DNA of 64,000 nucleotides, taken from Candidatus Dormiibacterota bacterium (GTDB taxonomy: Bacteria; Chloroflexota; Dormibacteria; CF-121). The DNA lies in contig DAIPYJ010000007.1 in assembly GCA_036782775.1 (NCBI GenBank), positions 1,082 through 65,081 on the forward strand, written 5' to 3'. The position numbers and the translations under genes are program-made. Below, one piece after another: positions 9,713-32,864 of this stretch; position 1 is the stretch's first letter; each line of letters starts with the position of its first letter. Below the pieces are notes generated by a model. It searched no databases. It had not been told where the DNA came from and worked only from the letters and a program-made list of their open reading frames with translations.

Positions 9713-10099
9713 TCAGGCAGCCTGCGATTGCGCGGGGTTCACGTAGCGTCCAACCAGCGCGATCAGATCCTCGAGCTCGTAGGGCTTGGTCAAGCATTCG
9801 GCGCAGCCCGCTGCCAGCGCTGTCTCGCGATCGCCGACCATCGCATGCGCGGTGATCGCCACCACCGGGATGGCGGCGGTCATCGGATCGGCCTTGAGCG
9901 CCTTGGTCGCCTCCCATCCGTTCATCTCGGGAAGAGAGAGGTCCATCAGGACCAGGCCGGGGTGCAAGCGGCGCGCCATCTCGACCGCCTCACGCCCGTT
10001 GCGCGCCAGTTCGCAGCTAAAGCCGCGCGAGCGCAGCACCTTGAGCGCCATGCGCTGCATGGTCGCGTCGTCTTCGACGAGCAGGACCAATTGGTTCAT
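9713..10099 (-). CDS. single-domain response regulator (CheY-like receiver)
   Basis: LVLLVEDDATMQRMA...LVLMDLSLPEMNGWE...K. ATGA overlap with the upstream kinase gene. Confidence 0.8.
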   Translation of the reverse strand: MNQLVLLVEDDATMQRMALKVLRSRGFSCELARNGREAVEMARRLHPGLVLMDLSLPEMNGWEATKALKADPMTAAIPVVAITAHAMVGDRETALAAGCAECLTKPYELEDLIALVGRYVNPAQSQAA

Positions 10100-12886: not shown

Positions 12887-13609
12887 GTGGCAGGACTTGG
12901 CGCCAGAGAGCGCGCGCGACTGGCGGTCGAGCGGTTGAAACCGGCCTACCCCGCGGTCTCCGAGCTGGACCATGAAAACCCCTTCCAGATGCTGATGGCG
13001 ACCATCCTGTCGGCGCAGACCACCGACCGTGCCGTCAACGGCGTGACGCCGGCGCTCTTCAAGCGATACCCGGATGCGGCCGCGCTGGCGCACGCCGACC
13101 CACGCAGCGTGGAGCGCATCATCAAGCCCACCGGCTTCTTCCACGTCAAGGCGAAGACGATCATCGCCTGCAGTGCCGCGCTGGTCGAGCGTTTCCAGGG
13201 CCAGGTTCCCCCGCGGATGGAGGATCTCGTCACCCTTCCGGGGGTCGGCCGGAAGACGGCCAACGTCGTGCTTGGCGTCGCCTTCGACATTCCCGGCTTT
13301 GCCGTGGACACCCACGTCACCCGCCTCACTCACCGGCTGAGGTTGACCCGCTCATCCGATCCGGTGAAGATCGAGGCGCGGGTCACCAAGTTGATTCCCC
13401 CATCCGAGTGGACCGGCTTCAGCCTGCGCTTGATCCTCCACGGGCGGCGGATTTGCATCGCGCGGGCGCCCCGCTGTCCGGAATGCGTCATGAACGACTT
13501 CTGCCCAACCTCGACGGTGCGGCCGGACAGGGCCTTGACAGCCGCAAAGCCGCGGACAAGGATGGCTCATGGAGCAACGGCCGCCAAACGTTCCGGTGTC
13601 CGCGTCTAG
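12887..13609 (+). CDS. nth: endonuclease III (DNA glycosylase/AP lyase)
   Basis: HhH-GPD motif LVTLPGVGRKTANVV and C-terminal 4Fe-4S Cys cluster (CIARAPRCPECVMNDFC). Confidence 0.85.
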   Translation: MAGLGARERARLAVERLKPAYPAVSELDHENPFQMLMATILSAQTTDRAVNGVTPALFKRYPDAAALAHADPRSVERIIKPTGFFHVKAKTIIACSAALVERFQGQVPPRMEDLVTLPGVGRKTANVVLGVAFDIPGFAVDTHVTRLTHRLRLTRSSDPVKIEARVTKLIPPSEWTGFSLRLILHGRRICIARAPRCPECVMNDFCPTSTVRPDRALTAAKPRTRMAHGATAAKRSGVRV

Positions 13610-14161
13610 CCCCCCGGGACAGCGCCGGCAACCGAGCGTGCTCGGCCTCCTTCTGGTGCTGGCCGGCGTTGCCCTGTTGCTGGCGCAAGTTGTCCACGTC
13701 GACCTCGGCCATTACGCCTGGCCGCTCTTCATCATCGTGCCCGGCGTCGCCCTGCTGATCATCGCCGTCAGCTCGCGTGGATTCGCAGGCGAGGGGTTGG
13801 CCATCCTGGGCAGCCTGCTCACCATCACCGGGCTCATCCTTCTCTTCCAGAAGGCCACCGACCATTTCGAGAGTTGGGCCTATGCCTGGGCCCTCGTCTT
13901 TCCCGGCGCGGTCGGGATCGGCATGATCATCTACGGAACTTACGCCGGCCGGTCCGGCAATGTGCGCGCCGGCGCGCGCGGCTGCTCGGCATCGGCCTGC
14001 TGCTCTTCTTGCTCGGCGCCGCCTTCTTCGAGGGCATCATCGGGATCGGCGGCTATCACCTCGGCCAGTCGGCCGGCGTCATCGCGGGCGTGGTGATCAT
14101 CGGCGTCGGGGCGCTGCTGCTCATCCTCAGCCTGATTTCGCGCCGCTCCACGCTTCGGTAG
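13569..14161 (+). pseudogene. polytopic membrane protein gene with apparent +1 frameshift near 13968-13976 (or a sequencing error)
   Basis: Frame 0 (13569-14096) reads as a hydrophobic membrane protein up to ...GRSGNVRAGA, then turns into Ser/Cys junk. Another frame reads RLLGIGLLLFLLGAAFFEGIIGIGGYHLGQSAGVIAGVVIIGVGALLLILSL to a stop at 14161. The switch sits in the gcgcgcgg tract. Confidence 0.4.
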
Positions 14162-17744: not shown

Positions 17745-18755
17745 GTGGATCCGCTGCCTTCCGGCCCTATGCCGGAGCGCCGCACCATCCTGGTCACGGA
17801 TGACAGCGCCGCCAACCGCGATCTGATCTGTGGGCAGCTCTCCACGCTCGGCTTCTGGACCGAAGCGGCGACCAACGGCGAGGAGGCAATCAGCGCCGCC
17901 CGCCGGCTGAAACCGGACCTGATCCTGATGGACGTCGAGATGCCGGTGATGAACGGGCACCAGGCCTGCCGGCAGCTCAAGTCCGATCCCCAGACTGCGG
18001 ACATTCCGGTGCTGATGATGACGGGCTTCGATCCCCGGCCGGAGCGCGTCAAGATGGTCGAAGCCGGCGGCGACGACCTGATCGTGAAGCCGGTCCCGAT
18101 GCGCGACCTCCAGGTGCGCGTCCGGGCGCTGCTGCGGCTCAAGGAACTGCGCAAAGACCTGCGCAGCACGCAGGAAAGCCTTCGCGAGCTGGTCAAGCGC
18201 GAGAACCCCACTGAGTCGAAGGCGCCCTTCGACGACAGCGTGGCGCTGACTGCCCAGGCGCTGGCTCGGCTGATTGGTCTCGACGCCGAAGACCAGGAGG
18301 TCGCATTCCACGCCGGGTTGCTTCATGACATCGGGCAGATCGGCGTGCCGGAGGAACTGTTGAACAAGCAAGGCAGCTACACGCCCGAAGAGTTCGCCCA
18401 GATCCAGAAGCACACGGTGCTCGGCGCCGAGATCGCCGGACCGTTCCGTCCCGCCTCGGTGCTGGCGCCCGCCATCAGGCACCACCACGAGCGCTGGGAC
18501 GGTTCGGGCTACCCTGACAAGCTGCAGGGCCCGGCCATCCCGATGATGGCCCGCATTGTCGCCGTCGCCGACGCGTTCCACGCGATGATCATCGACCGCC
18601 CTTACCGGCCTCGGCATACCGTGGGCAAGGCGCTCGAGATCCTCGCGGCCGGCGCCGGCACGCAGTGGGACCCGCGGCTGGTCTCGGCCTTCGCGACCTC
18701 ATCGCTGCCCCAGCGCATCGCCGGTACGCCAAACGAAGAAGCAAAGATCGCGTAG
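17745..18755 (+). CDS. response regulator with HD-GYP output domain (RpfG-like c-di-GMP phosphodiesterase)
   Basis: Receiver ILVTDDSAANRDL...LILMDVEMPVMNGH...K. HD-GYP domain with HAGLLHDIGQIGVP and HHERWDGSGYPD. Confidence 0.8.
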   Translation: MDPLPSGPMPERRTILVTDDSAANRDLICGQLSTLGFWTEAATNGEEAISAARRLKPDLILMDVEMPVMNGHQACRQLKSDPQTADIPVLMMTGFDPRPERVKMVEAGGDDLIVKPVPMRDLQVRVRALLRLKELRKDLRSTQESLRELVKRENPTESKAPFDDSVALTAQALARLIGLDAEDQEVAFHAGLLHDIGQIGVPEELLNKQGSYTPEEFAQIQKHTVLGAEIAGPFRPASVLAPAIRHHHERWDGSGYPDKLQGPAIPMMARIVAVADAFHAMIIDRPYRPRHTVGKALEILAAGAGTQWDPRLVSAFATSSLPQRIAGTPNEEAKIA

Positions 18756-18880: not shown

Positions 18881-19294
18881 TCAGTTGAAGGTGCAGGTCG
18901 CGTTCAGGACGCCGTGGACGGTGCCCTTCGGCGGAGACGCCTTGTAGGTGAAGGTCTCGGTCGCCGGCGGAGCCTGGTGCAGCAGGTTGGCGTTGACGAG
19001 CTCGGTCGTGTTCACCGCGTCACCGGCGGCCGGGGTCGCCGTGTCGCCGCCAGCGGCGCCATCGGGATAGACGTTGTTGGTGTAGTAGTACAGGTCGACC
19101 GCGCCCTGGATGGTCGAACCGTCGGTCTTCATGGCGTTGCACGCCGCAGTCGCGTTGACGCCGGCGATGTTGAAGAGCACGATGGCGGCCAGTGCGCCCA
19201 GGATCGCGATCACGACGAGCAGTTCGACGAGGGTGAAGCCGCCCTGGCCGCGCCGGGATGCGCCACGGCCCTGCTTGAGGATTGAAAGAACCAT
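18881..19294 (-). CDS. pilA: type IV major pilin (prepilin with class III signal)
   Basis: Leader ending ...RRGQGG followed by FTLVELLVVIAILGALAAIVLF (the prepilin cleavage/methylation motif). 137 aa with two Cys in the C-terminal half. It is the last gene of the operon and is followed by a strong terminator. Confidence 0.8.
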   Translation of the reverse strand: MVLSILKQGRGASRRGQGGFTLVELLVVIAILGALAAIVLFNIAGVNATAACNAMKTDGSTIQGAVDLYYYTNNVYPDGAAGGDTATPAAGDAVNTTELVNANLLHQAPPATETFTYKASPPKGTVHGVLNATCTFN

Positions 19295-19365: not shown

Positions 19366-19517
19366 TCAGCGCAGTAGCAGTTGGGTCACGGCGATCGCCG
19401 CCAGCGCGACGGCCACCAGGGCGGCGGCGACCAGCAGCAGCGGTCGAGCGCGCCGGCCGAGACGGGGCGGCGCAAAGTCGACGGCGACCTGGGGCTTGCG
19501 ATCAGGCCGCGACACCG
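19366..19517 (-). CDS. tiny single-TM ORF (about 49 aa) overlapping the pilM stop; possible PilN remnant or micro-protein
   Basis: GTG start 8 nt after AAGGAGG, which lies inside the 3' end of pilM. It encodes VSRPDRKPQVAVDFAPPRLGRRARPLLLVAAALVAVALAAIAVTQLLLR, a positive N-terminus followed by one TM. Confidence 0.3.
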
Positions 19518-20413
19518 GTGTCACCTCCTTGTGACGGGCTGAGGCGAGGCTGCCAGCGCTCCTGCTGAAGGAGGCCGATTTCGGCGAAATGCGCCTGCCA
19601 GGGAAAGTCCGCGGATGCCTGCAGCCGAGTTTGCGGCGAACGAGCCTGGAAGCCGAAGCTTTGCCCGGCGCGTTCCGGTCCGCCATCGAGAAAAGCGAAG
19701 CGGCCACTCACCACAAGTGGTGTCCAGGGTCCGATGCTGATATCCGGCGCGGCGCCGCGCATGAACTTGACCAGCGCGGCCACCGAGAGGGATAGCTCCT
19801 CGAACTGCGCCTCGGCGTCGTCGGGGGGAGCGTCCAGTTGAAAGGTTCGCAAGAACCTGGGCCGGCCGCCGGCCATCAGGACCAGGGTCGCCTCGACGGC
19901 GCCCCACTCGAGCAGCAAGCCGTCGGCGACCCCCATGCCACGTGCCAGGGCCAGCGGCTTCAGGTCCATCCGTTCGACCGTGAGCCCTGCCGCGCCCAGT
20001 GCCGAGATGACGCCGTCGATCATGGCCCGCCGGGCAGCCACCAGGTAGACGGCGTATCCGCTGGCAATCCGCTGCGCCTGCCAGGCGAAATAGACATCCT
20101 CGGGATCCAGCGGAATCAACCTCCGCCCTTCAAACAGCACGGCACTGCTCAGCTCGCTGGCAGGAAGGCGGGGCAAACGAAAGTCGCGAAAGGCTGTTCC
20201 GGTCTCGGCAATGGCCACTCGCACCGTTCCGGGAGAAAATCGCTGCTCCTGGATGACGCCGCGAACCACGGCGGTCAGCAAGGGCGTCGGGATGCCATCG
20301 ACGACCGCCCCATCTGGCAAGAGCATCTCGGCATGGCGCGTGAGCTGTCGGCCGTCCGCCTCCAACAGTCGCAACTCGCGATTGCCAAGGTCGAGACCAA
20401 GCCGCCGGCTCAC
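19502..20413 (-). CDS. pilM: type IV pilus assembly protein PilM (actin-like ATPase fold)
   Basis: GTG start at 20411-20413 overlaps the upstream stop (GTGA), with GGAGG 6 nt upstream. The N-terminus VSRRLGLDLGNRELRLLEA matches the PilM signature. The longer 449-aa ORF in the track is an out-of-frame artefact upstream of this start. Confidence 0.7.
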   Translation of the reverse strand: MSRRLGLDLGNRELRLLEADGRQLTRHAEMLLPDGAVVDGIPTPLLTAVVRGVIQEQRFSPGTVRVAIAETGTAFRDFRLPRLPASELSSAVLFEGRRLIPLDPEDVYFAWQAQRIASGYAVYLVAARRAMIDGVISALGAAGLTVERMDLKPLALARGMGVADGLLLEWGAVEATLVLMAGGRPRFLRTFQLDAPPDDAEAQFEELSLSVAALVKFMRGAAPDISIGPWTPLVVSGRFAFLDGGPERAGQSFGFQARSPQTRLQASADFPWQAHFAEIGLLQQERWQPRLSPSQGGDTGVAA

Positions 20414-20847
20414 TGGTAGGCCTCCCAGGTCACGGCAGAGGTTCCGTTTCCGAGCTCCGTCACGAGGGCCGTCAAGCTCCGCGCGGTGCCGCTGGCGGTA
20501 ATCGTGAGGTTCCAGGTGGCGCCGTTGCCATGACAGGGGTTTCCTTTTCGGATGCGGGTGGTGACCGTAATTGGCGAACCGGCGTAGTTCAGGGTCACCG
20601 CACTCGTTCCAGGCGCATTGCAGCCATTGCCGTTCTTGTCGTCGATCGCTTGCATGCCATAGGCGAGCCCGGCGTCGAGCGCGTAGGTTGTGCGCGTGTC
20701 CGCCTTCACACCGGAGAGGCTGAGGAAAGCGCTGCTGGCCAGCGTCAGCGCCGCCGCAACAACGAGCAAGAAGGCGGCGACAAAGGTCATCACGATGAGC
20801 AATGCCTGGCCGGCTTCGGCGTGACGCTGAGGACGCATCAGAAGCAT
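20410..20847 (-). CDS. PilX-like / pseudopilin-like pilus assembly protein
   Basis: N-terminus MRPQRHAEAGQALLIVMTFVAAFLLVVAAALTLAS resembles the PilX_N hydrophobic segment. 145 aa. Coupled to its neighbours. Confidence 0.5.
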   Translation of the reverse strand: MLLMRPQRHAEAGQALLIVMTFVAAFLLVVAAALTLASSAFLSLSGVKADTRTTYALDAGLAYGMQAIDDKNGNGCNAPGTSAVTLNYAGSPITVTTRIRKGNPCHGNGATWNLTITASGTARSLTALVTELGNGTSAVTWEAYQ

Positions 20848-21308
20848 CCACCAGGCCGGTTACCGACGTTCAAGGTCGACGCGCTGGCGCCGGTCGTCGA
20901 CGGCTGAATGGTGACTGTGGCGTAGCAACCGATCGTCATCAGGGTGATGCTGGTGATCTCCCGGGCGGCCGTCTGGGCGCTCCCGTTGACGGTCCTGATC
21001 AGGTTGTTGCTGCCGTCCACGCTGTAGATCACGGTCGTCAGCGTCGCCGGAGCTCCATAGGTCAGGGTGATGGTGCTGACGCCGCCGGCGGTTCCGGGCA
21101 CGAGTGCATTGGCGCTGTTGAGATCCTTGACCAGGACCAGGCTGGCTTCGTTGACCGCCGTGTCGGCCGCGATCGCGCGCGCTTCCGTTGTCAGCGTCTG
21201 GTAGCCGACCAGGAAGGTGCCGGCGAGGGCGATGCTGACCACCACCATGATCGCGACGCCGACCGCCATTTCCACCAGGGTGAAGCCATGCTGCTGGCTA
21301 CGCCTCAT
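20838..21308 (-). CDS. minor pilin (prepilin-type N-terminal cleavage/methylation domain)
   Basis: MRRSQQHG then FTLVEMAVGVAIMVVVSIALAG. Confidence 0.7.
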   Translation of the reverse strand: MRRSQQHGFTLVEMAVGVAIMVVVSIALAGTFLVGYQTLTTEARAIAADTAVNEASLVLVKDLNSANALVPGTAGGVSTITLTYGAPATLTTVIYSVDGSNNLIRTVNGSAQTAAREITSITLMTIGCYATVTIQPSTTGASASTLNVGNRPGGCF

Positions 21309-21685
21309 GGTTGCTCCTTCAGAAAGAGAAGCTGCTCCCTACTACTGTTGGGACCGCTGACCGTAAGGCTGATCTCTTGCAGCCCGGCATCCGGGTTGGT
21401 GGTCTTGAAGCTGACCGGTGGTCCGGCAGCGTAGTTGAGGACTTGATAGCTGAACGAATAGCCAGCGCTGGTGAGGTTGGTATAGGTACCCGTCGTCGAG
21501 TACGCCTGACTCTTGATGTATTCGGCGTTGGAGCGGGTCAGGGTGTCAAGCTTGGTCAGTTGCTGATGGCGCGTCGCCGCGATGGTTGCCGCAGAAAACG
21601 CGCTCAGGATCGAGACGACGATGACGGCAAGCAGCGCGACCGCCACGGTGGTCTCGATCAGCGTGAAGCCGCGCTTGCGGTTCAT
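21305..21685 (-). CDS. minor pilin (prepilin-type N-terminal cleavage/methylation domain)
   Basis: MNRKRG then FTLIETTVAVALLAVIVVSILS. Its stop overlaps the downstream start. Confidence 0.7.
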   Translation of the reverse strand: MNRKRGFTLIETTVAVALLAVIVVSILSAFSAATIAATRHQQLTKLDTLTRSNAEYIKSQAYSTTGTYTNLTSAGYSFSYQVLNYAAGPPVSFKTTNPDAGLQEISLTVSGPNSSREQLLFLKEQP

Positions 21686-22908
21686 TTGATCGCCCCCACC
21701 AGCCCGTACATTGCCGAGATCAGCGAGATGGCGATAAAGCCGACGACCGCGCCGACCGCGATCGTCATCGCCGGCTCGATCATGGCCGTCATCGAGCGAA
21801 TCCGATGGTCGAGCTCTTCTTCGTAGAACTCGGCGGCCTGCTCCAGGTAGGTGTCGAGCGTTCCTGTCTCTTCACCAACGCGAACCATCTGCGTCAGCAT
21901 TGGCGGAAAGAGATGGGTGCGGAGCAGCGGGCCGGCGAAGCCTTCGCCTCCCGTCATCTGTTCCTTGACCCCGCGTAGGCCCTCCTGAAAGACGCGGTTT
22001 CCCGTGCTGGCGATCACGGCGTCGAAGGTCTGACCGAGCGGCACGCCTGCTTTCAAGACCATGGCAAGGGTTCGGGCAAAGCGGTTCAGGATCGCCGAGA
22101 GCACGATCGGGCCGAAAACGGGGATCCTGATCGCGATCACGTCCTTTCGATATCGGCCCCAATCGGTGCGGAGCGCCGCGACGGTGCCGGTGACCAGGGC
22201 GGCCAGGCCAACGCCGACTTCGAGCGCCCAGGTTTCCAGGAAGGTGACGATCCCGAGCAGAATGCGGGTCGGCAACGGTAGCTCGACCTTGAACTCGGCA
22301 AAGATGCGCACAAATGCCGGCAGCGCGAAAACCACGAGGATGATGACGACCCCGACGGCCAGCAGCAGGATGACGGTCGGATAGATCAGCGCCGATCGCA
22401 ACCGTCGCAGGGTGTTCAGGTCACGCCGGAGATAGACCGCGAGCTGTTGCAGCGTCGCCTCGAGATTTCCGGTCAGCTCGGCGACGCGGATCAGGTCGAT
22501 ATAGAGCTGAGAGAAGACGTTCGAGTGCTTGGCGAGGGCATCAGAAAGGTTGAGCCCACGTTCAAGGTCGTCGAGGATGGCAAGAATGACGCGCTTGAAG
22601 AGGGGTGAGGCCGCTTCTTCCGCCATGGTGCCAAGCGCGCGGCTCATCGGAACGCCGGCGCCGACGAAGGTTGCCAGCTGTCGAGTGAAGAGGATGATGT
22701 CGGCTTGTGAAATGCGAAACAAGGTGGGGAAGTAATCCGCCATCGTCTTGGCTGGTGGCGCCGGGTAGAGGCGGACGATCTTGAGCCCCTGCAGCCAGAG
22801 GCTCTGTTCGGCAGCGGAGCTGCCTTCGGCCTCGACCCGACCCTCGCGGCGCTCACCGTTCTCGGTGTACGCGCGATAGGCGTAGCTAGGCACCGCTGCC
22901 CTCGACAT
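21682..22908 (-). CDS. pilC: type IV pilus platform protein PilC (T2SS-F family)
   Basis: 408 aa with two T2SSF repeats and polytopic membrane topology. Confidence 0.85.
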   Translation of the reverse strand: MSRAAVPSYAYRAYTENGERREGRVEAEGSSAAEQSLWLQGLKIVRLYPAPPAKTMADYFPTLFRISQADIILFTRQLATFVGAGVPMSRALGTMAEEAASPLFKRVILAILDDLERGLNLSDALAKHSNVFSQLYIDLIRVAELTGNLEATLQQLAVYLRRDLNTLRRLRSALIYPTVILLLAVGVVIILVVFALPAFVRIFAEFKVELPLPTRILLGIVTFLETWALEVGVGLAALVTGTVAALRTDWGRYRKDVIAIRIPVFGPIVLSAILNRFARTLAMVLKAGVPLGQTFDAVIASTGNRVFQEGLRGVKEQMTGGEGFAGPLLRTHLFPPMLTQMVRVGEETGTLDTYLEQAAEFYEEELDHRIRSMTAMIEPAMTIAVGAVVGFIAISLISAMYGLVGAIK

Positions 22909-24610
22909 GGACCGACCGGATTACTTCGCTAATCGTCGTCAGGCCCTCGTCGACCTTGGCGATGCCCGCGCTTCGCAGCGTCATCATGCCTTCGCCGATG
23001 GCGCGTTCCCGTAGCGCTTCCGGCGGAGCATCACGAACCAGCAGGCGCTTGATCGCCTCGCTCATCCGCAGCACCTCGTAAACCCCGATCCGGCCGAGGT
23101 AGCCGGTGTGCGCGCACGAGGCGCACCCCGTGCCACGCCGAAACTCGGTCGCGACCCCGCCGGCGGCGCGGTAAAAACCGAGCTCATCCGCAGGCGGCTC
23201 GTAGCCTACGGCGCATTGCAGGCAGATCCGGCGCACCAGGCGCTGCGCCAGGACCCCGATCACGGCGGACGTCACCATGAACGATTCGATGCCCATTTCG
23301 ATAAATCGATAGATGGCGCCGATGGCGTCGGTGGCATGGAGGGACGAGAGAACCAGGTGGCCGGTGAGCGCCGACTGCACCGAGATCTCGGCCGTCTCCT
23401 TGTCGCGGATCTCGCCGACCAGGATGGCGTCCGGGTCCTGCCGGAGGATGGCGCGCAAGCCATTGGCGAAGCTGATCCCAGCCAGACGGTTGATCTGGAT
23501 CTGGTTGACGCCTTCGAAGGTGTATTCGACCGGATCCTCGATCGTCATGATGTTGCGCTCGACATGGTCGAGCTCGTTGAGCGAGGAATAGAGCGTGGTC
23601 GTCTTGCCACTTCCGGTCGGCCCGCTGACGAGCACCATGCCGTAAGGCGATCGGATCAACGAACGGTAGCCGTCAAGGGCCGAGGGCGCGAAGCCGAGGC
23701 TATCGAGGCCGAGGATCGATCGCGACCGTTCGAGCAGCCGGAGCACGACCTTCTCGCCCCAGATGGTCTCGATCGTTCCGACCCGGATGTCGAGGGGCCG
23801 TCCTTCGACGGTTGTCTGGATCTGGCCGTCCTGGCTGTGCCGGCGGTCGACGATATCGAGGTTGGCGAGCAGCTTGACGCGGGAGGCGATCGGCGCCGCC
23901 AGCGTCGCGGGCAGCCGGGTCGCCTCATGCAGGACGCCGTCGATGCGAAAGCGAACCCGCAGATGATCTTGCTGCGGCTCGATGTGGATGTCGGAAGCGC
24001 GCTCCTCGGCGCCTTCGGCAATGATCAGGTCGACGATCTGCACCACCGGCGCATCCTTGTTGACTTCGGCCAGACGGCGGCTCGGCCCCGCAGGCCGAAG
24101 CGTTTCCTCGAAGGAGCGGACGTGACGGTCGACGCCGGTTCGCAGCTTGTAGAACTGTCCGATCGCCTGCTCGATCTCCGAGCGCACGCCCAGCAGCGGC
24201 TTGATCCGTTTCCGCGTCAGCACCTTCAGCTCGGCGAACAGGGCCAGGTCGCCGGGGTCGACGGTGGCAACCTCCAGCTCGTCCTTGTCGAGACGGACCG
24301 GCAGGATGGCATGCTCGCGGGCGTAGGCCTCGGGGATGAGCGCCAGCGCATCTTTCTCGACTCGGGTACGCGTGAAATCGATCAGCGGCACCTTGAAGTG
24401 CTGGCTGAGCACGCGCGCCAGCGCCTTTTCCTCAACCAGCCCCTGGGCCAGCAGGACCTGCCCAAGCGGCTGTCGGCGCCGCCGCTGCTCGCCCAAGGCG
24501 GCGTCGAGCTGTTCGAGGGTCAGCAACCCGTTCTCGAGCAGCAGCTCTCCCAGTCGTTTATCCTGCCGAAGCCCGAGGCCGCTGGTTGGTTGACGTTCGA
24601 CCGCGCTCAC
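22886..24610 (-). CDS. pilB: type IV pilus assembly (extension) ATPase PilB/GspE
   Basis: N-terminal GSPII_E_N domain (LLENGLLTLEQLDAALGEQ), Walker A GPTGSGKTTTLYS, and a CxxC...CxxC tetracysteine motif. GTG start overlaps the upstream stop (GTGA). Confidence 0.85.
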   Translation of the reverse strand: MSAVERQPTSGLGLRQDKRLGELLLENGLLTLEQLDAALGEQRRRRQPLGQVLLAQGLVEEKALARVLSQHFKVPLIDFTRTRVEKDALALIPEAYAREHAILPVRLDKDELEVATVDPGDLALFAELKVLTRKRIKPLLGVRSEIEQAIGQFYKLRTGVDRHVRSFEETLRPAGPSRRLAEVNKDAPVVQIVDLIIAEGAEERASDIHIEPQQDHLRVRFRIDGVLHEATRLPATLAAPIASRVKLLANLDIVDRRHSQDGQIQTTVEGRPLDIRVGTIETIWGEKVVLRLLERSRSILGLDSLGFAPSALDGYRSLIRSPYGMVLVSGPTGSGKTTTLYSSLNELDHVERNIMTIEDPVEYTFEGVNQIQINRLAGISFANGLRAILRQDPDAILVGEIRDKETAEISVQSALTGHLVLSSLHATDAIGAIYRFIEMGIESFMVTSAVIGVLAQRLVRRICLQCAVGYEPPADELGFYRAAGGVATEFRRGTGCASCAHTGYLGRIGVYEVLRMSEAIKRLLVRDAPPEALRERAIGEGMMTLRSAGIAKVDEGLTTISEVIRSVHVEGSGA

Positions 24611-24798
24611 GCCGCGGCTCGGATCGGCCCTCGGAGCTGCTTGCGGATCTCTTCGAGCATCTCCGGCGTAAAGCGAAGATGCCGGCCTGGAGTACGAAAC
24701 GCCGCCTGGATGTCGCCACGGTTCACCGCTCGGATCAAGGTCGACTTGCTGATGCCCAGCACGCGGGCGGCTTCGGACGTCGACAGGGCCGGCTTCAT
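24607..24798 (-). CDS. excisionase/MerR-like HTH DNA-binding protein (63 aa) embedded in the pilus operon
   Basis: LSTSEAARVLGISKSTLIRAVNRGDIQAAFRTPGRHLRF is an HTH_17/excisionase-family fold. Its stop overlaps the pilB GTG start. Confidence 0.6.
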   Translation of the reverse strand: MKPALSTSEAARVLGISKSTLIRAVNRGDIQAAFRTPGRHLRFTPEMLEEIRKQLRGPIRAAA

Positions 24799-24842: not shown

Positions 24843-25928
24843 TTAGGCGGCCAGGCGGCGCAGTTCCTCAGGGTGCTGGCTCCGGGTGGCCGCGAGGTTG
24901 TAATCGATCAGACCGGCGCGGATGAGGTCGCTGAGACTTCGCTCCATGGTGTTCATGCCCTCCTTGGCGCTCGTCTCCAGCACGTTGCGCAACTGGCGGG
25001 TTTTCCCCTCCTTGATCAGGTTCTGGACCGCGATCGTGTTGAGCAGAACCTCGAAGGCGGCGACTCGGCCCGGCCCGTCGCGCCGAGGCAGCAGCTGCTG
25101 ATAGATCACCGCCGCCAGCGTGCTCGACAATTGAATGCGGACCTGCTGTTGCTGCTCCGCCGGGAAGACGTCGACGATGCGGTCGACGGCCTGGGTGGTG
25201 TCGTTGGTATGCAAGGTCGCCAGCACCAGGTGGCCGGTTTCGGCGATCGTGATCGCCGCCGCGATCGTCTCGAGGTCGCGCATCTCACCCACCAGGAGCA
25301 CGTCGGGAGTCTGGCGCAGGGCGGCGCGCAGGGCGTCCGAAAAGGAGGCGACGTCCGCGCCCACCTCCCGTTGCTCGACAATACTGCGCTGATGCCGGTA
25401 GACATACTCGATCGGATCCTCGATCGTGATCACGTGGCAGGGCCGGTTGGCGACGATGTCGCTCACCATGGCGGCCAGCGTCGAGGACTTGCCCGACCCG
25501 GTTGGACCGGTGACCAGGATCAGTCCCTGGTTGAGCTTGGTGAGCCCGCGGACCACCACCGGCACGCCCAGCTGGTCGAAATTCGGAATCTGGTAGGGGA
25601 TGAGCCGCAGGGCCAGCCCGACCGAGCCCCGCTGCATGAAGGCGTTGATCCGGAAGCGCGCCTCGCCGCGCCAGTTGAAGGAGAAATCGAGATCGCGGCG
25701 CTCCTGGAACTGCTTCCAGCGCTCCCCCGACAGCACTTCGCGCGCCATCTGCTCGATCTGCTCGGGGCGCAGCGGCTGCGGCGCGATCGGGACGAGCGCG
25801 CCGTCCTTGCGCATGGTGGGCGGCGCCCCGGCGGAGAGGACGAGGTCGGACGCCGCCTGCTCCAGGAGGACCTGCAGATAGGCGTCAATCGTCAGGGCTG
25901 GCTGGGCTGGCTGGCCGGAGGGCGCCAT
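24843..25928 (-). CDS. pilT: twitching-motility retraction ATPase PilT
   Basis: Walker A GPTGSGKSST, plus the AIRNLIRE-like motif (IAVQNLIKEGK) and His box. 361 aa. Confidence 0.85.
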   Translation of the reverse strand: MAPSGQPAQPALTIDAYLQVLLEQAASDLVLSAGAPPTMRKDGALVPIAPQPLRPEQIEQMAREVLSGERWKQFQERRDLDFSFNWRGEARFRINAFMQRGSVGLALRLIPYQIPNFDQLGVPVVVRGLTKLNQGLILVTGPTGSGKSSTLAAMVSDIVANRPCHVITIEDPIEYVYRHQRSIVEQREVGADVASFSDALRAALRQTPDVLLVGEMRDLETIAAAITIAETGHLVLATLHTNDTTQAVDRIVDVFPAEQQQQVRIQLSSTLAAVIYQQLLPRRDGPGRVAAFEVLLNTIAVQNLIKEGKTRQLRNVLETSAKEGMNTMERSLSDLIRAGLIDYNLAATRSQHPEELRRLAA

Positions 25929-26347
25929 TGATCGACATCCTGTGCAACCTCCTCGGCGCAGCCTTCTTGCTTCCGCTGGGGAGTGCCCTTGGCAGCTTCT
26001 TTGAGGTGGTTCTCGATCGCGTGCCGCGCGGCGAATCGCTGCTCTGGCCCCCCTCCCATTGCCGCATCTGCAACCGGCGGCTGACGCCCGACGAGCTGGT
26101 GCCCGTGATCAGCTACCTGGCGCAGCATGGGCGCTGCCGAGGCTGCGACACGAGGATCGGCCGCGGCGTCCCGATTCGCGAGGGGCTGAGCGGGCTGGCG
26201 CTGGGTCTTCCCTGGCTGCTGGCCGGCTGCCAGTATCCGTCGATCGCGCTTGGTGTTGGCATCGTCGCGCTCCTCGTGATCTGGATCGCTCGCGGGCTCA
26301 CCCAGGGTCCCTTGCCGCGGACGCCGGACAGAACCAAAAGCAATTAA
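25928..26347 (+). CDS. pilD: prepilin peptidase N-terminal (Zn-ribbon, DiS-P-DiS) domain only; the A24 catalytic domain is absent or truncated
   Basis: LGSALGSFFEVVLDRVP...SHCRICNRRL...VPVISYLAQHGRCRGCDTRI...IRE matches the PilD N-domain, including both CxxC pairs. The ORF stops at TAA 26345-26347 after 139 aa. The TTG start shares a base with the pilT start codon. Confidence 0.6.
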   Translation: MIDILCNLLGAAFLLPLGSALGSFFEVVLDRVPRGESLLWPPSHCRICNRRLTPDELVPVISYLAQHGRCRGCDTRIGRGVPIREGLSGLALGLPWLLAGCQYPSIALGVGIVALLVIWIARGLTQGPLPRTPDRTKSN

Positions 26348-26377
26348 GGCTGCCGACCGACGTTACCTGTAACGGTT

Positions 26378-27232
26378 GTGAAACTGACGGGCCCGCTGCT
26401 GCGCGAAGTCGTCGGCATCCGGCGAATCGTCGCGCTGGCGATTCTGCTCGCGGCGGTAGCCGCCGTCGCTTACCTGGAGCGGTCGGTCGCCGGTGACATC
26501 GATCTCCGTCTGGTCTATTTCTTGATCGTCCTCTCGGGCGCGATGCTGCTGCCGCGGATGGTCGCGTTGAGCGTGGCGGCGGCGGTCGCGGTCGTCAGCG
26601 TCGGGGTTAGTGGCGCCCAGGGCATGAGCCTGGCTATCAACGGCGTCACCCATCTGCTGATGTACGGCTACGCGGCGCTGCTCACCAACAACTGGGAGCA
26701 GGAACGCCGGCGCCTGATGCGGATGAGCCGGGTCGACGACCTCACCGGGCTCTACAACCTGCGCGCTCTCAAGGAGCAACTGCCGATCTGGCTGGGACCG
26801 GCGGCGCGGACCGGCCGGCGCATGACGGTGATGATGATGGACATCGACGGCTTCAAAGAGGTCAACGACCGGCTCGGCCATGGTACCGGCAACGAGCTGC
26901 TCAAAGAAGTCGCCAACCTGCTTCGCTTCGCCGTGCGCATCGGCGACGAACCCTTCCGCTTCGGGGGCGACGAGTTCGTCTTGCTGCTGGCCGACGCCGA
27001 CGCCGACGGAGCCATGGTGGTCGGGACCCGCATCCAGGACATCTACCGCTCCATGGGACAGACGCTCCGCGGCACCAATATCGACGTCTCGTTCAGCGTC
27101 GGTCTCGCGATTTTTCCCGATGATGGCGCCACCCCTGAGCTGCTGCTGGCGCGCGCCGATCAAGCGCTCTATCAGGCGAAGCGGAGCGGCGCCGGCAAGA
27201 TCGCCCGTTACCGCGAATCTGCCGCCGCCTGA
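26378..27232 (+). CDS. membrane-anchored GGDEF diguanylate cyclase (possibly the downstream part of a disrupted fusion with the preceding ORF)
   Basis: About 110 aa of TM helices, then a GGDEF domain (RFGGDEFVLLL, with an intact RxxD-like I-site region). The GTG start has no SD and is in frame with the upstream ORF, 10 codons past its TAA. Confidence 0.65.
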   Translation: MKLTGPLLREVVGIRRIVALAILLAAVAAVAYLERSVAGDIDLRLVYFLIVLSGAMLLPRMVALSVAAAVAVVSVGVSGAQGMSLAINGVTHLLMYGYAALLTNNWEQERRRLMRMSRVDDLTGLYNLRALKEQLPIWLGPAARTGRRMTVMMMDIDGFKEVNDRLGHGTGNELLKEVANLLRFAVRIGDEPFRFGGDEFVLLLADADADGAMVVGTRIQDIYRSMGQTLRGTNIDVSFSVGLAIFPDDGATPELLLARADQALYQAKRSGAGKIARYRESAAA

Positions 27233-27238
27233 ACCTCT

Positions 27239-28258
27239 CTAGCGGCAAGTCCAGGACTGCGTGAGCGCAGGCGCAGAGTAGAACGGGCTGATGAAAATCA
27301 ACTGGACGGTGCCCGACGAGTTGGGGTGCACATAGCTGTCGGTGATCACGTGCGCGTTCGTGTCGCCGGCCGCGACCACCAGCGAACCCGAGTGGACGGT
27401 GACCACGCTGTTGCCGCTACTGTTCGTGTCTTTGTAGATCCAGGTATATCTCACGGTGCCCCCCGGGCCGCCGGCCTGCATCCGGAAGGTGCCGGTGGTG
27501 TTAACGGTGGTCATGGTGCATTTGTCCGAGCCGTTCTGTGAGAGGCTCGCACTGTCCGACGCGCTGGCGATCGCGAACGGCCCTGAGGGTGTGGGTGTTG
27601 GAGTCGGTGTGGGTGTGGGTGTTGGTGTTGGGGTCGGAGTGGGTGTGGGCGTGGGCGTCGGCGTTGGTGTGGGCGTCGGCGTCGGCGTGGGGGTGGGCGT
27701 TGGAGTTGGCGTGGGCGTGGGCGTCGGCGTGGGCGTCGGCGCTGCGCTCGGCGTCGGAGAAGCGCCGGGCGTCGGCGAGGCGCTCGGGCTGGGCGATGGG
27801 GAGGCGCTCGGGCTGGCGGACGCGCTCGGCGACGGCGACGCACCGGCCGATGGCGAGGCGGTTGGGCTCGACGACGCCGATGGTCTCGGACTGCTGCTGC
27901 CGGAGGTCGAGGCTGCCGGCGTCGTGCTCGGCCGCAACGCGATCAGCGGACGCGAGGTCGTGTTAGGCCGCGCGGCGAAAAATCGCGGTGGCAGGTTGAA
28001 GGTCGGGACCAACAACCAGAAGGGAGCGTGGGGGTCGTCGGCAAAGTAGAGGCTCGCGTCCGGCTCAGCGGCGCTGCCGCTGGCGTCGATCCGGAAAGGA
28101 CCGACTTCCCAATCGGGTGGGATGGCGCGCACCAGGAAGAAGAGGACGATCAGGCCGAAGAAGAACAAGAGGAAGCCGAACTTCCGGCGCCGCTTGCGCT
28201 CGTCCGCCTGCTCTTCTTCCGTCTGCGGTTGGATGGCGCGCCTGAATGGGAGTCGCAT
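27239..28258 (-). CDS. membrane-anchored protein with long Ser/Pro/Thr linker and small C-terminal beta domain (hypothetical)
   Basis: N-terminal basic stretch plus one TM (FGFLLFFFGLIVLFFLV), about 110 aa of (SP)/(PT) repeats, and a Cys-containing C-terminal domain. Confidence 0.5.
   Translation of the reverse strand: MRLPFRRAIQPQTEEEQADERKRRRKFGFLLFFFGLIVLFFLVRAIPPDWEVGPFRIDASGSAAEPDASLYFADDPHAPFWLLVPTFNLPPRFFAARPNTTSRPLIALRPSTTPAASTSGSSSPRPSASSSPTASPSAGASPSPSASASPSASPSPSPSASPTPGASPTPSAAPTPTPTPTPTPTPTPTPTPTPTPTPTPTPTPTPTPTPTPTPTPTPTPTPTPSGPFAIASASDSASLSQNGSDKCTMTTVNTTGTFRMQAGGPGGTVRYTWIYKDTNSSGNSVVTVHSGSLVVAAGDTNAHVITDSYVHPNSSGTVQLIFISPFYSAPALTQSWTCR
27589..27740. repeat. hexanucleotide tandem repeat (GGNGTNGG)n encoding a (PT)n linker
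   Basis: The repeat ggtgtgggtgttgg... is visible directly. A shorter copy of the same repeat type lies at about 5211-5290 inside the phosphoesterase gene. Confidence 0.8.
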
Positions 28259-29962: not shown

Positions 29963-30669
29963 GATCGTTGGACGAGGATAGCAGCGGCCACGATCGGCGC
30001 CAGCCGCGCCCGCAAGATCCGCGGGCCAAGGTGCACTTCGATGCCGCCGCGCTCGCGCATCAGCGATCGCTCCTCGTCGCTCCAACCACCTTCCGGACCG
30101 ATCGCCAGCGCGTAGGCGGGAACCCTGTCAACCGCAACCAGTGCCCTGGTTGCTCGCGGGTCCAGCACGAGCAACTGATTCATTCCCGCGACCGCGTCGA
30201 CGGCGGCCTCGAGCGAGATCGGCCCGCGCAGCTCCGGCGCCCGGCCGCGATGGCTCTGTTCGGCGGCCGAGACCGCAATCGTTTGCCAGCGGCTGAGGCG
30301 GCTGGCAGCCGGACGGGCAATCGAGCGCGCCGCCTGCACGGCGATCACCTGGCTGACGCCGACCGCGGTCGCGGACTCGATCACTGCGTCGAAGTCCGGA
30401 TTCGGCAGCACCGCCTGGAGCAAGGTCACGCTCACCGACGGCTCACCGCCGATCGGCCGCCGTTCCAGCACCTGGGCTTTGACCGTCCCGTCGGCGACCT
30501 CGGACACCGCGACGTGATGCTCGATGCCCTCGGCCACCACCACGCCCTGCTCGCCAACTCGAACCCGAAGCACCCGCGCCAGGTGATGGCCCTTGCCGCC
30601 CGAGATCACGAGCTGATCGGTTTGTGGGCGGGTCTGGTCGAGCAGCAGCCAGAACAATGCCGTGCCCAT
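29959..30669 (-). CDS. rsmE: 16S rRNA (uracil1498-N3)-methyltransferase RsmE
   Basis: Shows the RsmE family pattern, including the C-terminal ...LAIGPEGGWSDEE motif. The ATG at 30667-30669 is preferred over the TTG at 30687. Confidence 0.7.
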   Translation of the reverse strand: MGTALFWLLLDQTRPQTDQLVISGGKGHHLARVLRVRVGEQGVVVAEGIEHHVAVSEVADGTVKAQVLERRPIGGEPSVSVTLLQAVLPNPDFDAVIESATAVGVSQVIAVQAARSIARPAASRLSRWQTIAVSAAEQSHRGRAPELRGPISLEAAVDAVAGMNQLLVLDPRATRALVAVDRVPAYALAIGPEGGWSDEERSLMRERGGIEVHLGPRILRARLAPIVAAAILVQRS

Positions 30670-30686
30670 GCTATCCGTCCACGCCA

Positions 30687-32864
30687 ATGGAAGGCTCTGC
30701 TATTGGCGTTGTATCCCGCAGCATGGCGCAGCCCGAGCTGCCTCGCGACCTCCACCGCGCGACCTTCAAGATCGCCGCCGTCTCTTTCTGGGCGGTCTCG
30801 GCGCTCGTCATGGCGAGCAGCTACGTCGCCAGCAGCGTGCCGGTCAACTACGCAGTCGAGTGGGCGATCACCGCCCTCGCCGTCGTCGCCGGCCTGGTGT
30901 GCTGGTTTCTTCCCTGGCAGCAGATCCCGCTGACGTGGTTTGTTCCCATCGTGTTTGGTGGGCTCGGGATGGAGACCATCGGCGTCTTCGCCACCGGCGG
31001 AACCCACTCTCACTTAACCGTCCTCTATCTGGTCGTGCTCGTCTTCACCGCCTCGATGCTGGCCTTCAGGGTGGCGCTCGCGGTGCTCGCCTACTCGATC
31101 CTCGCGGGCGTGCTGCCGCTCGTCGTCGACGGATGGGATGGCACCTACGTCCGCGCCTACATCATGCTGATCGCCTCGATGGTGATTTGCGCCTTCATTC
31201 CGGCACTGGTGCGGCGCGCGCTTCGGGAGGAGAACCAGCTGGCTGAGCGTCGCCGCGAGGAGCTCGAAGCCAGCTATCTCGCGACCATCGAGGCGCTGGC
31301 CACCGCGCTGGATGCGAAGGACCGGCATACCGAAGCGCACTCCCGCGAGACAGCTGCCCTTTCTCGAGCCGTCGGCCGCCGGTTGGGGCTCGAGGAAGAA
31401 CGATTGCGGTTTCTCGAGTACGCCGCGCTGCTCCACGACATCGGCAAGATCGGGATTCCCGGCTATGTGCTCAACAAGCCGGGGGCGCTCGATGCGGAGG
31501 AGATGGCGATCATGCGCGAGCATCCGGTGATCGGTGAGCGGATCGTCGCCTCGGTCCCATTTCTGAAGCGCATCCGGCCCATCGTCCGGGCCGAGCACGA
31601 GCGCTGGGACGGCGGCGGCTATCCGGATCGGCTGAACGGCGAGGCAATCCCGGTCGAAGCTCGCATCATCCACGCCTGCGATGCCTTTCAGGCGATGTCG
31701 AGCAACCGGCCGTATCGCCGGGCACAGCCGCTCGACTGGATCCTCAAAGAGATTCGCGGCCAGGCCGGCAAGCAGTTCGATCCCGCCGTCGCCGAGGCGT
31801 TACTGGCGGTGATCGAGGAGCGCGAGGTCGTCATCCAGGGCACCGCCGAATCCAACGATCACGAAGACCGGCCGCTCCCCGAGGCGCATTCGTGGACGCA
31901 GCACCTCGATGCGATCCAGCAGCTGGGAGCGCGGCTCTCGAGCGTGGTGGACGTGCCCGAGGTTTGCCAGACGATCGGGCAGGCCATCACCGAGCTGCTC
32001 CCCTACGACCAGTGCCGCGTCTACCTCCTGGAAGACGACCGCCGAACCCTTCGGGCTGCCTACTTCAGCGACAGCAATCGCGACGAGTACGAAGGGGTCA
32101 CCGAAGAAACGCTGGCGGCCCAAATCGGTGAAGGCATCACCGGTTGGGTGGCGGAGACCAAGCAGGGCGCGCTGGTCGGCGACACCGAGCGCCATCCCAG
32201 GGCGGTGCACATCCCGGGAACAACCGAGACCGAGGAATCGATGCTGGCGGTGCCCGTGATCTTCGAGGAGCGCCTGATCGGCGTCATCGTCATCGTCAAG
32301 GTGGGCCTGCACCAGTACAACGGCGACCATCTCCGCCTGTTGACGATCCTCGCCAATCAGGCGGCCGTTTCCATTCAGAACGCGCGCTTGATCGAGCGGC
32401 TGGAAACCACCGCGCGGACCGACCCGCTGACCGGGCTGGCCAACCGGCGGGCGTTCGAGCAGGAGCTCGAAGAGCATCTGGGAGCTGTGCCTAGCCAGCC
32501 GTTCGCCGTGATCATGCTCGACCTGGACGACCTCAAACAGGTGAACGACGAGGATGGCCACGCGGCCGGCGATGCCGTCTTGAAGCGGGTGGCCTCAGTG
32601 CTCGGCGATGGGCTGCGTGAGGGAGACATCGTGACCCGCTGGGGTGGCGACGAATTCGTCTTGCTGCTCCCGGGAATGGATCAGGTCGGTGCCTTGTCGA
32701 TGGCCCGGCGAGTCAGTGGGACGCTATTGGGATCCGAGCACGGCGGCCGATCCGTCTCCGTGTCGATCGGGATCGCGGTCTTCCCCTCGGACGGCACGAC
32801 GGCGGACGCGCTGCTTGCCGCCGCCGACCGCTCGATGTACGCCGAGAAGCGGCAGGTCGCCTAA
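30687..32864 (+). CDS. membrane sensor with HD-GYP, GAF and GGDEF domains
   Basis: Seven or so N-terminal TM helices. HD-GYP domain (LLHDIGKIGIP, EHERWDGGGYPDRL), then GAF and GGDEF (RWGGDEFVLLLPG). Start is ambiguous (30687 or 30723). Confidence 0.75.
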   Translation: MEGSAIGVVSRSMAQPELPRDLHRATFKIAAVSFWAVSALVMASSYVASSVPVNYAVEWAITALAVVAGLVCWFLPWQQIPLTWFVPIVFGGLGMETIGVFATGGTHSHLTVLYLVVLVFTASMLAFRVALAVLAYSILAGVLPLVVDGWDGTYVRAYIMLIASMVICAFIPALVRRALREENQLAERRREELEASYLATIEALATALDAKDRHTEAHSRETAALSRAVGRRLGLEEERLRFLEYAALLHDIGKIGIPGYVLNKPGALDAEEMAIMREHPVIGERIVASVPFLKRIRPIVRAEHERWDGGGYPDRLNGEAIPVEARIIHACDAFQAMSSNRPYRRAQPLDWILKEIRGQAGKQFDPAVAEALLAVIEEREVVIQGTAESNDHEDRPLPEAHSWTQHLDAIQQLGARLSSVVDVPEVCQTIGQAITELLPYDQCRVYLLEDDRRTLRAAYFSDSNRDEYEGVTEETLAAQIGEGITGWVAETKQGALVGDTERHPRAVHIPGTTETEESMLAVPVIFEERLIGVIVIVKVGLHQYNGDHLRLLTILANQAAVSIQNARLIERLETTARTDPLTGLANRRAFEQELEEHLGAVPSQPFAVIMLDLDDLKQVNDEDGHAAGDAVLKRVASVLGDGLREGDIVTRWGGDEFVLLLPGMDQVGALSMARRVSGTLLGSEHGGRSVSVSIGIAVFPSDGTTADALLAAADRSMYAEKRQVA

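Follow-up and report, generated by a model that had tools for sequence, protein, structure and literature searches.

A peptidase-less PilD module encoded beside a membrane diguanylate cyclase in Candidatus Dormiibacterota

The prepilin peptidases of the PilD, XcpA and PulO type (MEROPS A24A) carry a PF06750 and a PF01478 domain. In PilD, methylation has been assigned to the IPR010627 domain and proteolysis to the C-terminal domain (PMC10191384). The PilD of P. aeruginosa binds zinc with the motif CxxC-x21-CxxC, and the N-methylation of the pilin, which depends on S-adenosylmethionine (SAM), needs the zinc while the cleavage does not; a glycine and a basic residue beside the third cysteine also contribute to methylation (PMC3584216). 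The formal demonstration that methylation belongs to the N-terminal domain is still pending (PMC4471445), partly because methylase and peptidase normally are parts of one polypeptide, and the role of pilin N-methylation has been open for over 40 years (PMC10191384). The modules of PilD are separable in nature, as seen from TadV/CpaA of the Tad pili and from the archaeal FlaK/PibD, which are peptidases without a methylase domain (PMC10191384). Here we describe the reciprocal arrangement, a methylase-type module without a peptidase, encoded in a 64,000-nucleotide (nt) stretch of contig DAIPYJ010000007.1 (assembly GCA_036782775.1, Candidatus Dormiibacterota; CF-121). This whole stretch is called the window below, and all coordinates refer to it. 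The module is the product of open reading frame 1 (ORF1), and the gene that follows it, ORF2, encodes a predicted membrane diguanylate cyclase, i.e. an enzyme for cyclic diguanylate (c-di-GMP). No methylase without a peptidase is described in PMC10191384 or PMC4471445.

Like PilD, XcpA and PulO, ORF1 has the N-terminal domain with its zinc site, the layout of a first transmembrane helix (TM1), a loop and two further helices (TM2 and TM3), and a place in a pilus cluster with pilB, pilC and pilT; unlike them, it lacks PF01478, both catalytic aspartates and ten of ten conserved C-terminal columns. The Dormibacterota pair is built from known parts, a clade-wide and selectively maintained peptidase-less PilD module beside an ordinary membrane cyclase, and its main value lies in the natural split of the two PilD functions and in a warning against misannotation. 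Genes for the methylase module only, which are under selection in this Dormibacterota clade and occur in Koleobacter as well, separate the functions of PilD naturally. With them it can be asked whether methylation needs no more than the N-terminal domain, in what way methylation matters to the pilus, and whether, beside a cyclase, the module also serves regulation.

The N-terminal domain of PilD as a gene of its own

ORF1 (25928-26347, plus strand) starts with TTG and encodes a membrane protein of 139 amino acids (aa) that consists of a stand-alone PilD N-terminal domain of the methylase type (A24_N). The Pfam family PF06750 (A24_N_bact) matches residues 17-93 with E=4e-24, and this domain (25976-26206, plus strand) includes the cytoplasmic zinc-ribbon loop. 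The four-cysteine site, C45xxC48-x21-C70xxC73 (26060-26146, plus strand), as read from the translation, has G68-R69 before the third cysteine and hydrophobic helices on its flanks. Both the spacing of the cysteines and the glycine plus basic residue agree with what zinc-dependent methylation requires in the PilD of P. aeruginosa (PMC3584216). When compared with a PilD profile of 263 positions, built from 82 full-length prepilin peptidases, ORF1 covers positions 8-130 (E=5.8e-46). The initial annotation of the locus had described ORF1 as the N-terminal domain of PilD only, with two CxxC pairs and hydrophobic flanks and with its end after 139 aa, at the boundary to the A24 domain, and this description stands. 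The AlphaFold2 (AF2) model, with a predicted local distance difference test score (pLDDT) of 76, has helices at 2-34, 83-99 and 104-125, which is the layout expected: TM1 is long, the loop after it is poorly ordered and has short strands, and two more helices follow. No NCBIfam model matched ORF1, and no solved structure containing an A24_N domain was found.

What is missing is just as clear from the alignment. The first catalytic aspartate of PilD is at profile position 123 and the GxGD motif at about 181-184, and the alignment with ORF1 ends at 130. For comparison we used the window together with 23 orthologous loci, each from a different species-level genome (24 loci in all), and at position 123 all 24 ORF1 orthologues have G, A, Q, R or a gap, and none has Asp. 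Columns that are at least 75% conserved among the 82 full-length PilDs number 27 in the N-terminal domain and 10 in the peptidase half; the ORF1 family retains 25 of the 27 and ORF1 none of the 10. At the two remaining columns of the N-terminal domain all 24 ORF1 sequences have E in place of N and Q in place of L, respectively. PF01478 (Peptidase_A24) does not match ORF1, ORF2 or their read-through fusion even at E<=1 (Pfam). To judge from its sequence, ORF1 cannot be a prepilin peptidase, because the whole peptidase half and both catalytic aspartates are missing.

ORF1 is nevertheless a functional gene under purifying selection. Over the 24 loci the median ratio of non-synonymous to synonymous substitution rates (dN/dS) is 0.195 at a dS of 0.82, and by part of the gene it is 0.09 in TM1, 0.075 in the zinc loop, 0.18 in TM2, 0.51 in TM3 and 0.59 in the C-terminal tail. 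Among 50 members of the family 56 columns are invariant, the four cysteines and G68-R69 included. The TTG start of ORF1 is preceded by GGAGGG, and both the TTG and an upstream GGAGG are conserved across the loci. A search of 5.8 billion proteins gave 345 relatives, and the best 120 of the 345 are all 121-143 aa long, contain PF06750 only and are 68-90% identical to ORF1, with the exception of one 108-aa call at 99%. Their named sources are Candidatus Dormibacteraeota or soil metagenome-assembled genomes (MAGs) labelled 'Chloroflexi'. The full-length PilDs nearest to ORF1 reach at most 52% identity in the N-terminal domain; their named organisms are Chloroflexota-labelled MAGs and Alkalihalophilus, and neither the source names of the closest ones (P0244, P0245, P0247-P0269, P0407) nor the contig contexts of P0244 and P0407 link them to Dormibacterota.

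Public records call members of the ORF1 family 'prepilin peptidase' or 'leader peptidase/N-methyltransferase' (P0005, P0010, P0045, P0070, P0077). One of them, P0010, is a near-twin of ORF1 with 99% identity, called as 108 aa from Val32 so that TM1 is removed. The name 'prepilin peptidase' and the Val32 start of P0010 both look like annotation errors, and as a consequence of the misannotation calls on the presence or absence of pilD in MAGs of this phylum are unreliable. For some contigs with the Dormibacterota type of locus (L002, L013; P0147, P0189) the organism is given as Candidatus Binatus, Candidatus Acidoferrum or Candidatus Angelobacter; wrong binning or labelling in the MAG sets of origin is the likely cause.

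We searched for the missing peptidase at several levels. No A24 catalytic domain was found in any frame of the window in a six-frame search with the full-length PilD profile. A second profile, which covers the A24 C-terminal part only and was built to include the short peptidases of Koleobacter, gave nothing below E=0.1 in the window, in the 23 other loci or in L025-L027; as a positive control, it detected both Koleobacter short peptidases (E=7.6e-23 and 9.9e-14). The absence of an A24 peptidase motif from the window had been noticed already in the initial annotation and was confirmed by these searches. The other loci were scanned within 10 kb of the ORF1-ORF2 pair, and in 23 of 23 neither of the two profiles found an A24 peptidase there. 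Only four polytopic membrane ORFs are present in the window, namely a LiaF-like ORF, PilC, a membrane HD-GYP/GGDEF protein and a 12-helix ORF. The first three have no A24 match in Pfam, and the 12-helix ORF (38378-40009), which was scanned against NCBIfam only, gave weak matches to amino-acid transporters alone. There is no peptidase near the orphan ATPase at 5.7 kb (Pfam), and no trace of a peptidase half in any frame downstream of ORF1.

Stand-alone A24_N genes are not restricted to Dormibacterota. HMMER, run exhaustively against 1.84 billion representatives, gave 11,785 matches, of which the best 150 were examined. Most of the 57 short A24_N representatives stop at scattered profile positions and resemble fragments from contig ends, and we counted as genuine only those stand-alone genes that were checked on their contigs. 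The complete genome of Koleobacter methoxysyntrophicus (CP059066) has a 120-aa A24_N-only gene inside a pilus cluster, with two PF01478-only genes (145/182 aa and 137 aa) at a distance of 3-4 kb, and this split cluster occurs twice (L024, 2138-3015 and 6001-6363; L031, 1964-2953 and 6001-6363). By this gene content, Koleobacter has a divided PilD, with methylase and peptidase each encoded on their own. It resembles the Dormibacterota loci in having an A24_N-only gene in a pilus cluster, but differs in that it has the two PF01478-only genes nearby and no cyclase, whereas the Dormibacterota loci have no PF01478 within 10 kb and a GGDEF gene directly next to ORF1. In one metagenome lineage a 137-aa A24_N-only gene (L025/L026, 6001-6414) follows a pilin gene and is convergent with pilT, and in a second one a 147-aa gene (L029, 5720-6163; L030, 6001-6444) lies just upstream of pilM. 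In these two lineages no Peptidase_A24 gene is present among the called genes of the flanks, which extend up to 6 kb on each side. We found no literature on a separately encoded methylase module, the split PilD of Koleobacter included, and none on pili or PilD in Dormibacterota.

Two separate genes and their junction

ORF2 (26378-27232, plus strand; 284 aa, GTG start) follows ORF1 closely. Between the TAA of ORF1 (26345-26347) and this GTG there are exactly 10 in-frame sense codons, and no Shine-Dalgarno (SD)-like motif, by a test that asks for 4 nt or more upstream of the start, precedes the GTG. This geometry is as first described. It had suggested that an ancestral fusion was split by a nonsense mutation or a sequencing error, or that the stop codon is read through in a programmed way, and both ideas are contradicted by the orthologous loci. 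ORF1 and ORF2 are adjacent in 24 of 24 loci, and in all 23 loci other than the window they are in the same order and on the same strand. The reading frame, however, is common to both in 5 of the 23; counting the window, it is 6 of 24, where chance alone would give 8 (P(X>=6)=0.86), and in the other 18 it differs. The spacer ranges from -4 to 66 nt, with a 4-nt overlap in L003 and a 4-nt gap in L009, and ORF1 ends with TAA, TGA or TAG at positions that differ between loci. ORF2 starts at one common residue of the alignment in 20 of the 23 loci, and with ATG in 15. That ORF2 lacks an SD-like motif is ordinary for this genome, because by the identical test 24 of 45 genes in the window lack one too.

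No protein joins the two parts. An A24_N and GGDEF fusion was found neither among the best 120 relatives of each ORF (for ORF2, the best 120 among the matches listed) nor among the best 150 of the 11,785 HMMER matches, in which every protein of at least 300 aa is A24_N plus Peptidase_A24. The nine long A24_N representatives, also of at least 300 aa, all have this same architecture and GGDEF in none. The forms of about 136 aa (ORF1) and about 284 aa (ORF2) are kept as separate proteins in hundreds of Dormibacterota contigs. When 25928-27232 is translated as one protein and compared with PF06750, PF01478 and PF00990, PF01478 remains without a match. The shared reading frame of ORF1 and ORF2 is a coincidence. 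Since frame, spacer and stop vary and the ORFs stay separate in the relatives, neither programmed read-through nor a stop introduced by a sequencing error or a recent nonsense mutation can explain the arrangement in this gene family. Each ORF is a gene in its own right and is translated independently of the other.

The spacer (26348-26377, plus strand; 30 nt) contains no SD-like, promoter-like or terminator-like site, and the conserved pair is probably bicistronic, with both genes on a common transcript. Within the spacer is an inverted repeat, GTTACctGTAAC (26362-26373, plus strand), that ends 4 nt before the start of ORF2. It is the sole GTTAC-N0-9-GTAAC in the 64 kb, with 0.03 expected. Exact equivalents are found at L003 4659-4675 and L008 10427-10443, and exact or variant copies, for instance cGTTAaggcTAACg and cGTTACCgCCTAGGc, occupy the same place in other loci. 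The repeat could form a small hairpin, belong to a promoter for a leaderless ORF2 mRNA or, given the HTH_17 gene in its vicinity, act as an operator. A stretch containing CTAG is seen 5-15 nt before several SD-less starts of the window (e.g. 2226, 14181, 50217 and 51109) and likewise before many ORF2 orthologues, and it may hint at leaderless transcripts or a common promoter element.

ORF2, whose GGDEF site is intact, is probably a diguanylate cyclase of the ordinary membrane-anchored kind. Its catalytic domain, residues 119-272 (26732-27193, plus strand), matches PF00990 (GGDEF) with E=1.8e-40 in Pfam, and TIGR00254 gives 140.4 bits against a cut-off of 37.4 bits. The motif reads RIGD-EPFRF-GGDEF, so the RxxD of the inhibition site (I-site, RIGD) is placed five residues before the GGDEF of the A-site, and R(V/I)GD and GGDEF in this arrangement (R..D-x5-GGDEF) are present in 24 of 24 orthologues. 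In the AF2 model (pLDDT 70) the N-terminal membrane domain (residues 1-104; 26378-26689, plus strand) has four helices, at 5-36, 44-57, 60-78 and 83-123, with very short loops in between, and the last helix is a long stalk into the GGDEF domain. No Pfam family for a sensor domain scores above threshold in this membrane region. It is constrained nonetheless, with a dN/dS of 0.20 (0.14 for the whole of ORF2; 24 loci) and the invariant residues D42, R44, P59, R60, N88, Y96 and Y98. The best 120 ORF2 relatives are all 277-298 aa long and have GGDEF only.

Seven ORF2 orthologues match the PilD profile weakly at positions of about 138-226, which is collinear with the positions 8-130 of ORF1. We considered whether residues 1-115 of ORF2 could hold a remnant of A24 and rejected it: the hmmsearch score is 3.8 bits and hhalign, comparing the profile of this region with that of full-length PilD, gives a probability of 0.1% with E=0.55, which is noise from the membrane helices. 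The transmembrane region of ORF2 thus has no sequence similarity to the A24 peptidases that these comparisons could detect.

The pair and a proposed c-di-GMP control of the pilus

The minus strand to the left of ORF1 encodes a type IV pilus cluster of the monoderm type, and the pair is situated at its edge. Its extension ATPase, PilB (22886-24610, minus strand; T2SSE, E=1.6e-125), has an MshE-type N-terminal region (MshEN, PF05157); TIGR02538 matches PilB with E=7.6e-168, which is yet below that model's own cut-off. The predicted c-di-GMP-binding domain, residues 19-70 (24401-24556, minus strand), scores 55.3 bits with NF053729 against a cut-off of 38 bits. MshEN has been defined as two tandem motifs RLGxx(L/V/I)(L/V/I)xxG(L/V/I)(L/V/I)xxxxLxxxLxxQ with a 5-residue spacer (PMC5013675), and residues 19-42 of PilB, RLGELLLENGLLTLEQLDAALGEQ, fit the strict 24-residue motif of that study without a mismatch. 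The strict first motif is present in 20 of the 21 PilB N-termini that were recovered (19 of 20 loci and the window). The window PilB is similar to the MshE/PilB ATPases, of which that of the MSHA pilus of V. cholerae is an example, in its match to NF053729, in the perfect first motif and in having genes for a cyclase and for HD-GYP proteins around it; it differs in the second repeat, which deviates at both ends, and the binding of c-di-GMP is here a prediction. To our knowledge, cyclases are not encoded beside a PilD-like gene in the known MshE-type systems.

The explanation that we favour, and that we hold to be rather probable, is that ORF1 is a stand-alone pilin-methylase module which is co-expressed with a cyclase whose c-di-GMP targets the MshE-type domain of PilB. 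ORF1 would then be composed of TM1, a cytoplasmic four-cysteine zinc ribbon, TM2 and TM3, with the aspartyl-peptidase half lost, and it would most likely still bind and methylate the N-terminus of the pilin. The leader peptide would be cleaved by an A24 peptidase encoded outside the 64 kb. The c-di-GMP from ORF2 would most plausibly act on the neighbouring PilB, and the HD-GYP proteins of the region would oppose ORF2 by removing c-di-GMP. We propose methylation because nearly all conserved residues of the zinc- and SAM-dependent PilD module have been kept. Several points weigh against this explanation. The N-terminal domain alone has never been shown to be sufficient for methylation (cf. PMC4471445), and the fixed changes N to E and L to Q in ORF1 could mark a changed function. 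The peptidase in trans is an assumption, with the scans having covered the window and the 10-kb flanks. The AF2 models are of moderate confidence only (pLDDT 76 for ORF1 and 70 for ORF2). At the ends of the second MshEN repeat of PilB, which a 5-residue spacer separates from the first, R is replaced by P and Q by H. The A24_N-only genes of Koleobacter, L025/L026 and L029/L030 have no GGDEF neighbour. Finally, a gene order of about 20 kb around the pair is kept in all these genomes, including the HIT, MiaB-like and RsmE genes, and so the pairing of ORF1 and ORF2 is not independent evidence of a functional link. The initial annotation had seen in the locus a physical link between pilin processing and c-di-GMP; what is left of it is a conserved and probably co-transcribed pair, while the synteny makes the adjacency weak evidence.

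A different role for ORF1, unlikely in our opinion although it deserves attention, is that of a non-enzymatic input subunit, which would recognise the N-termini of pilins and switch the sensor-less ORF2 through contacts between helices, and in this way couple the pilin pool to PilB. The constrained membrane domain of ORF2 without a sensor detectable by Pfam would fit such a role, as would the adjacency of the genes in all 24 loci, in some of which stop and start overlap or abut, and the family-specific substitutions fixed at conserved PilD positions in ORF1. A precedent exists in P. aeruginosa, where PilO binds the transmembrane domain of SadC and inhibits the cyclase (bioRxiv 10.1101/2020.10.17.343988). 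There too a membrane cyclase without an obvious sensor is combined with a small pilus-associated membrane protein, but the proteins are different ones, and the resemblance is a lead for the input-subunit idea only. The interaction of ORF1 with ORF2 is purely predicted, however; TM3, which is the likeliest contact region of ORF1, is also the least constrained of its helices (dN/dS 0.51), the stand-alone A24_N genes of three other lineages have no cyclase beside them, so that the module can do without a cyclase as its partner, and the synteny in the clade is conserved across the board. Taken one step further, a peptidase-dead PilD could serve as a pilin sensor that gates ORF2, with the pilin pool setting the level of c-di-GMP and feeding back on extension through PilB. 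We find this more doubtful still; if true, it would make a self-contained loop of pilin, c-di-GMP and PilB out of one locus. Of the proposals in the initial annotation, the one that survives is that ORF1 is a truncated but genuine paralogue of PilD and that the active peptidase is encoded elsewhere; its role as a regulator is hypothetical, and no peptidase was found in the window or in the 10-kb flanks of the other loci.

It may also be that the two genes are unrelated neighbours, ORF1 working in pilin maturation and ORF2 being one of many c-di-GMP enzymes, in a shallow clade where the gene order has not been shuffled. The order of about 20 kb includes housekeeping genes that have nothing to do with pili, other A24_N-only genes have no cyclase neighbour, and with four GGDEF proteins and a response regulator-HD_5 protein in the window a cyclase beside any given gene is not rare here. 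We nevertheless give this little credence, as the gap is short everywhere (-4 to 66 nt) with both genes on the same strand, no terminator-like site separates them, and the c-di-GMP receptor domain of the adjacent PilB is an obvious local target for a cyclase. A single polypeptide of PilD N-terminal domain, membrane domain and GGDEF, be it split by an ancient fission, by a strain-specific nonsense mutation or sequencing error, or restored by read-through of the TAA, is hardly credible and already contradicted. The common frame with 10 sense codons between the ORFs, the missing SD-like motif of ORF2 and the weak, collinear matches at about 138-226 all pointed towards it, but the frame is different in 18 of 24 loci, stop type, stop position and spacer vary, the weak matches are noise, no fusion exists among the relatives and representatives described above, and about half of the genes in the window likewise have no SD-like motif. 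Least credible of all is that ORF1 is a decaying pseudogene fragment of the former pilD of the cluster. Its place is one where pilD often adjoins pilB, pilC and pilT, and its truncation coincides exactly with the boundary of the domain; the selection analysis nevertheless contradicts decay, with dN/dS of 0.075-0.09 in TM1 and the zinc loop at a dS of about 0.4-0.96, and so do the 56 invariant columns in 50 members, the conserved TTG and GGAGG, and the lack of any trace of a peptidase half in the downstream frames. Compared with these, the methylase module that is co-expressed with a PilB-directed cyclase remains the explanation we prefer.

Other features of the window

The gene for the retraction ATPase, pilT (24843-25928, minus strand; T2SSE; TIGR01420 with 462 bits against a 319-bit cut-off), is divergent from ORF1 and adjoins it in 23 of 23 loci. 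The ATG of pilT on the minus strand and the TTG of ORF1 on the plus strand overlap by one base at 25928, and the promoter of each must therefore lie within the coding region of the other. The first 30 codons of ORF1 have a dS of 0.41, compared with about 0.9 in the rest of the gene, which fits an overlapping constraint at the DNA level. Between pilB and pilT is a gene for a DNA-binding protein of 63 aa (24607-24798, minus strand; HTH_17, PF12728, E=2.7e-12) that is conserved in the loci.

Beyond pilB, the cluster continues on the minus strand with the platform protein gene pilC (21682-22908; T2SSF, E=1.6e-61) and two genes for pilin-like proteins with the N_methyl family PF07963, one with the signal peptide G|FTLIE (21305-21685) and one with G|FTLVE (20838-21308). 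A PilM-like gene (19502-20851, minus strand) matches PilM_2 with E=3.9e-06 over residues 152-309, at 26.5 bits just below the 27-bit cut-off; its true start is probably internal, because its 5' part overlaps an ORF without a Pfam match (20410-20847). The candidate major pilin (18881-19294, minus strand; N_methyl PF07963, E=8.2e-09) has the signal peptide G|FTLVE. Four class-III prepilins (FTLVE/FTLIE) had been counted next to the pair in the initial annotation, but only three canonical signal peptides were found.

Proteins of c-di-GMP metabolism are frequent in the region. Apart from ORF2 the window encodes three GGDEF proteins, all of which also have the HD-GYP-type HD_5, making four GGDEF proteins with ORF2. 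Two of these three flank the pilus cluster and the pair: an HTH_17-HD_5-GAF-GGDEF protein (15277-17709, minus strand; Pfam), and a membrane HD_5(HD-GYP)-GAF-GGDEF protein (30624-32864, plus strand; Pfam) that is syntenic in the loci. Also flanking the cluster is a response regulator with an HD-GYP-type domain (17745-18755, plus strand; Response_reg and HD_5, with HHERWDGSGYP in the translation), which is a candidate c-di-GMP phosphodiesterase. The protein of 15277-17709 reads LLQDLGK where those of 17745-18755 and 30624-32864 read HDIG, and its HD motif may be degenerate. Its HTH_17 fold is also that of the small protein encoded between pilB and pilT. Also near the pilus cluster is a gene for a hybrid histidine kinase (10096-12834).

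Directly downstream of the pair, and convergent with ORF2, is a gene for a 339-aa protein without a Pfam match (27239-28258, minus strand), the end of which lies 7 nt past ORF2. It contains a long low-complexity (PT)n / (SP)n tract and is only patchily conserved in the loci, and a phosphoesterase (4391-5416, minus strand) has a TP-repeat linker that is similar to this tract.

The LiaF/LiaI-like membrane ORF (13569-14096, plus strand) has a C-terminal tail rich in Ser, Ala and Cys that looks unnatural, and an ORF in another frame (in the region 13539-14158) overlaps it, which points to a frameshift or to a gene that was called wrongly. A third ATPase of the T2SSE family (394 aa; 5725-6909, plus strand) has no genes for a platform protein, a pilin or a peptidase alongside; its neighbours, at 7267-8922 (plus strand) and 8919-9608 (minus strand), are a Gly-rich PKD-domain protein and a sortase.

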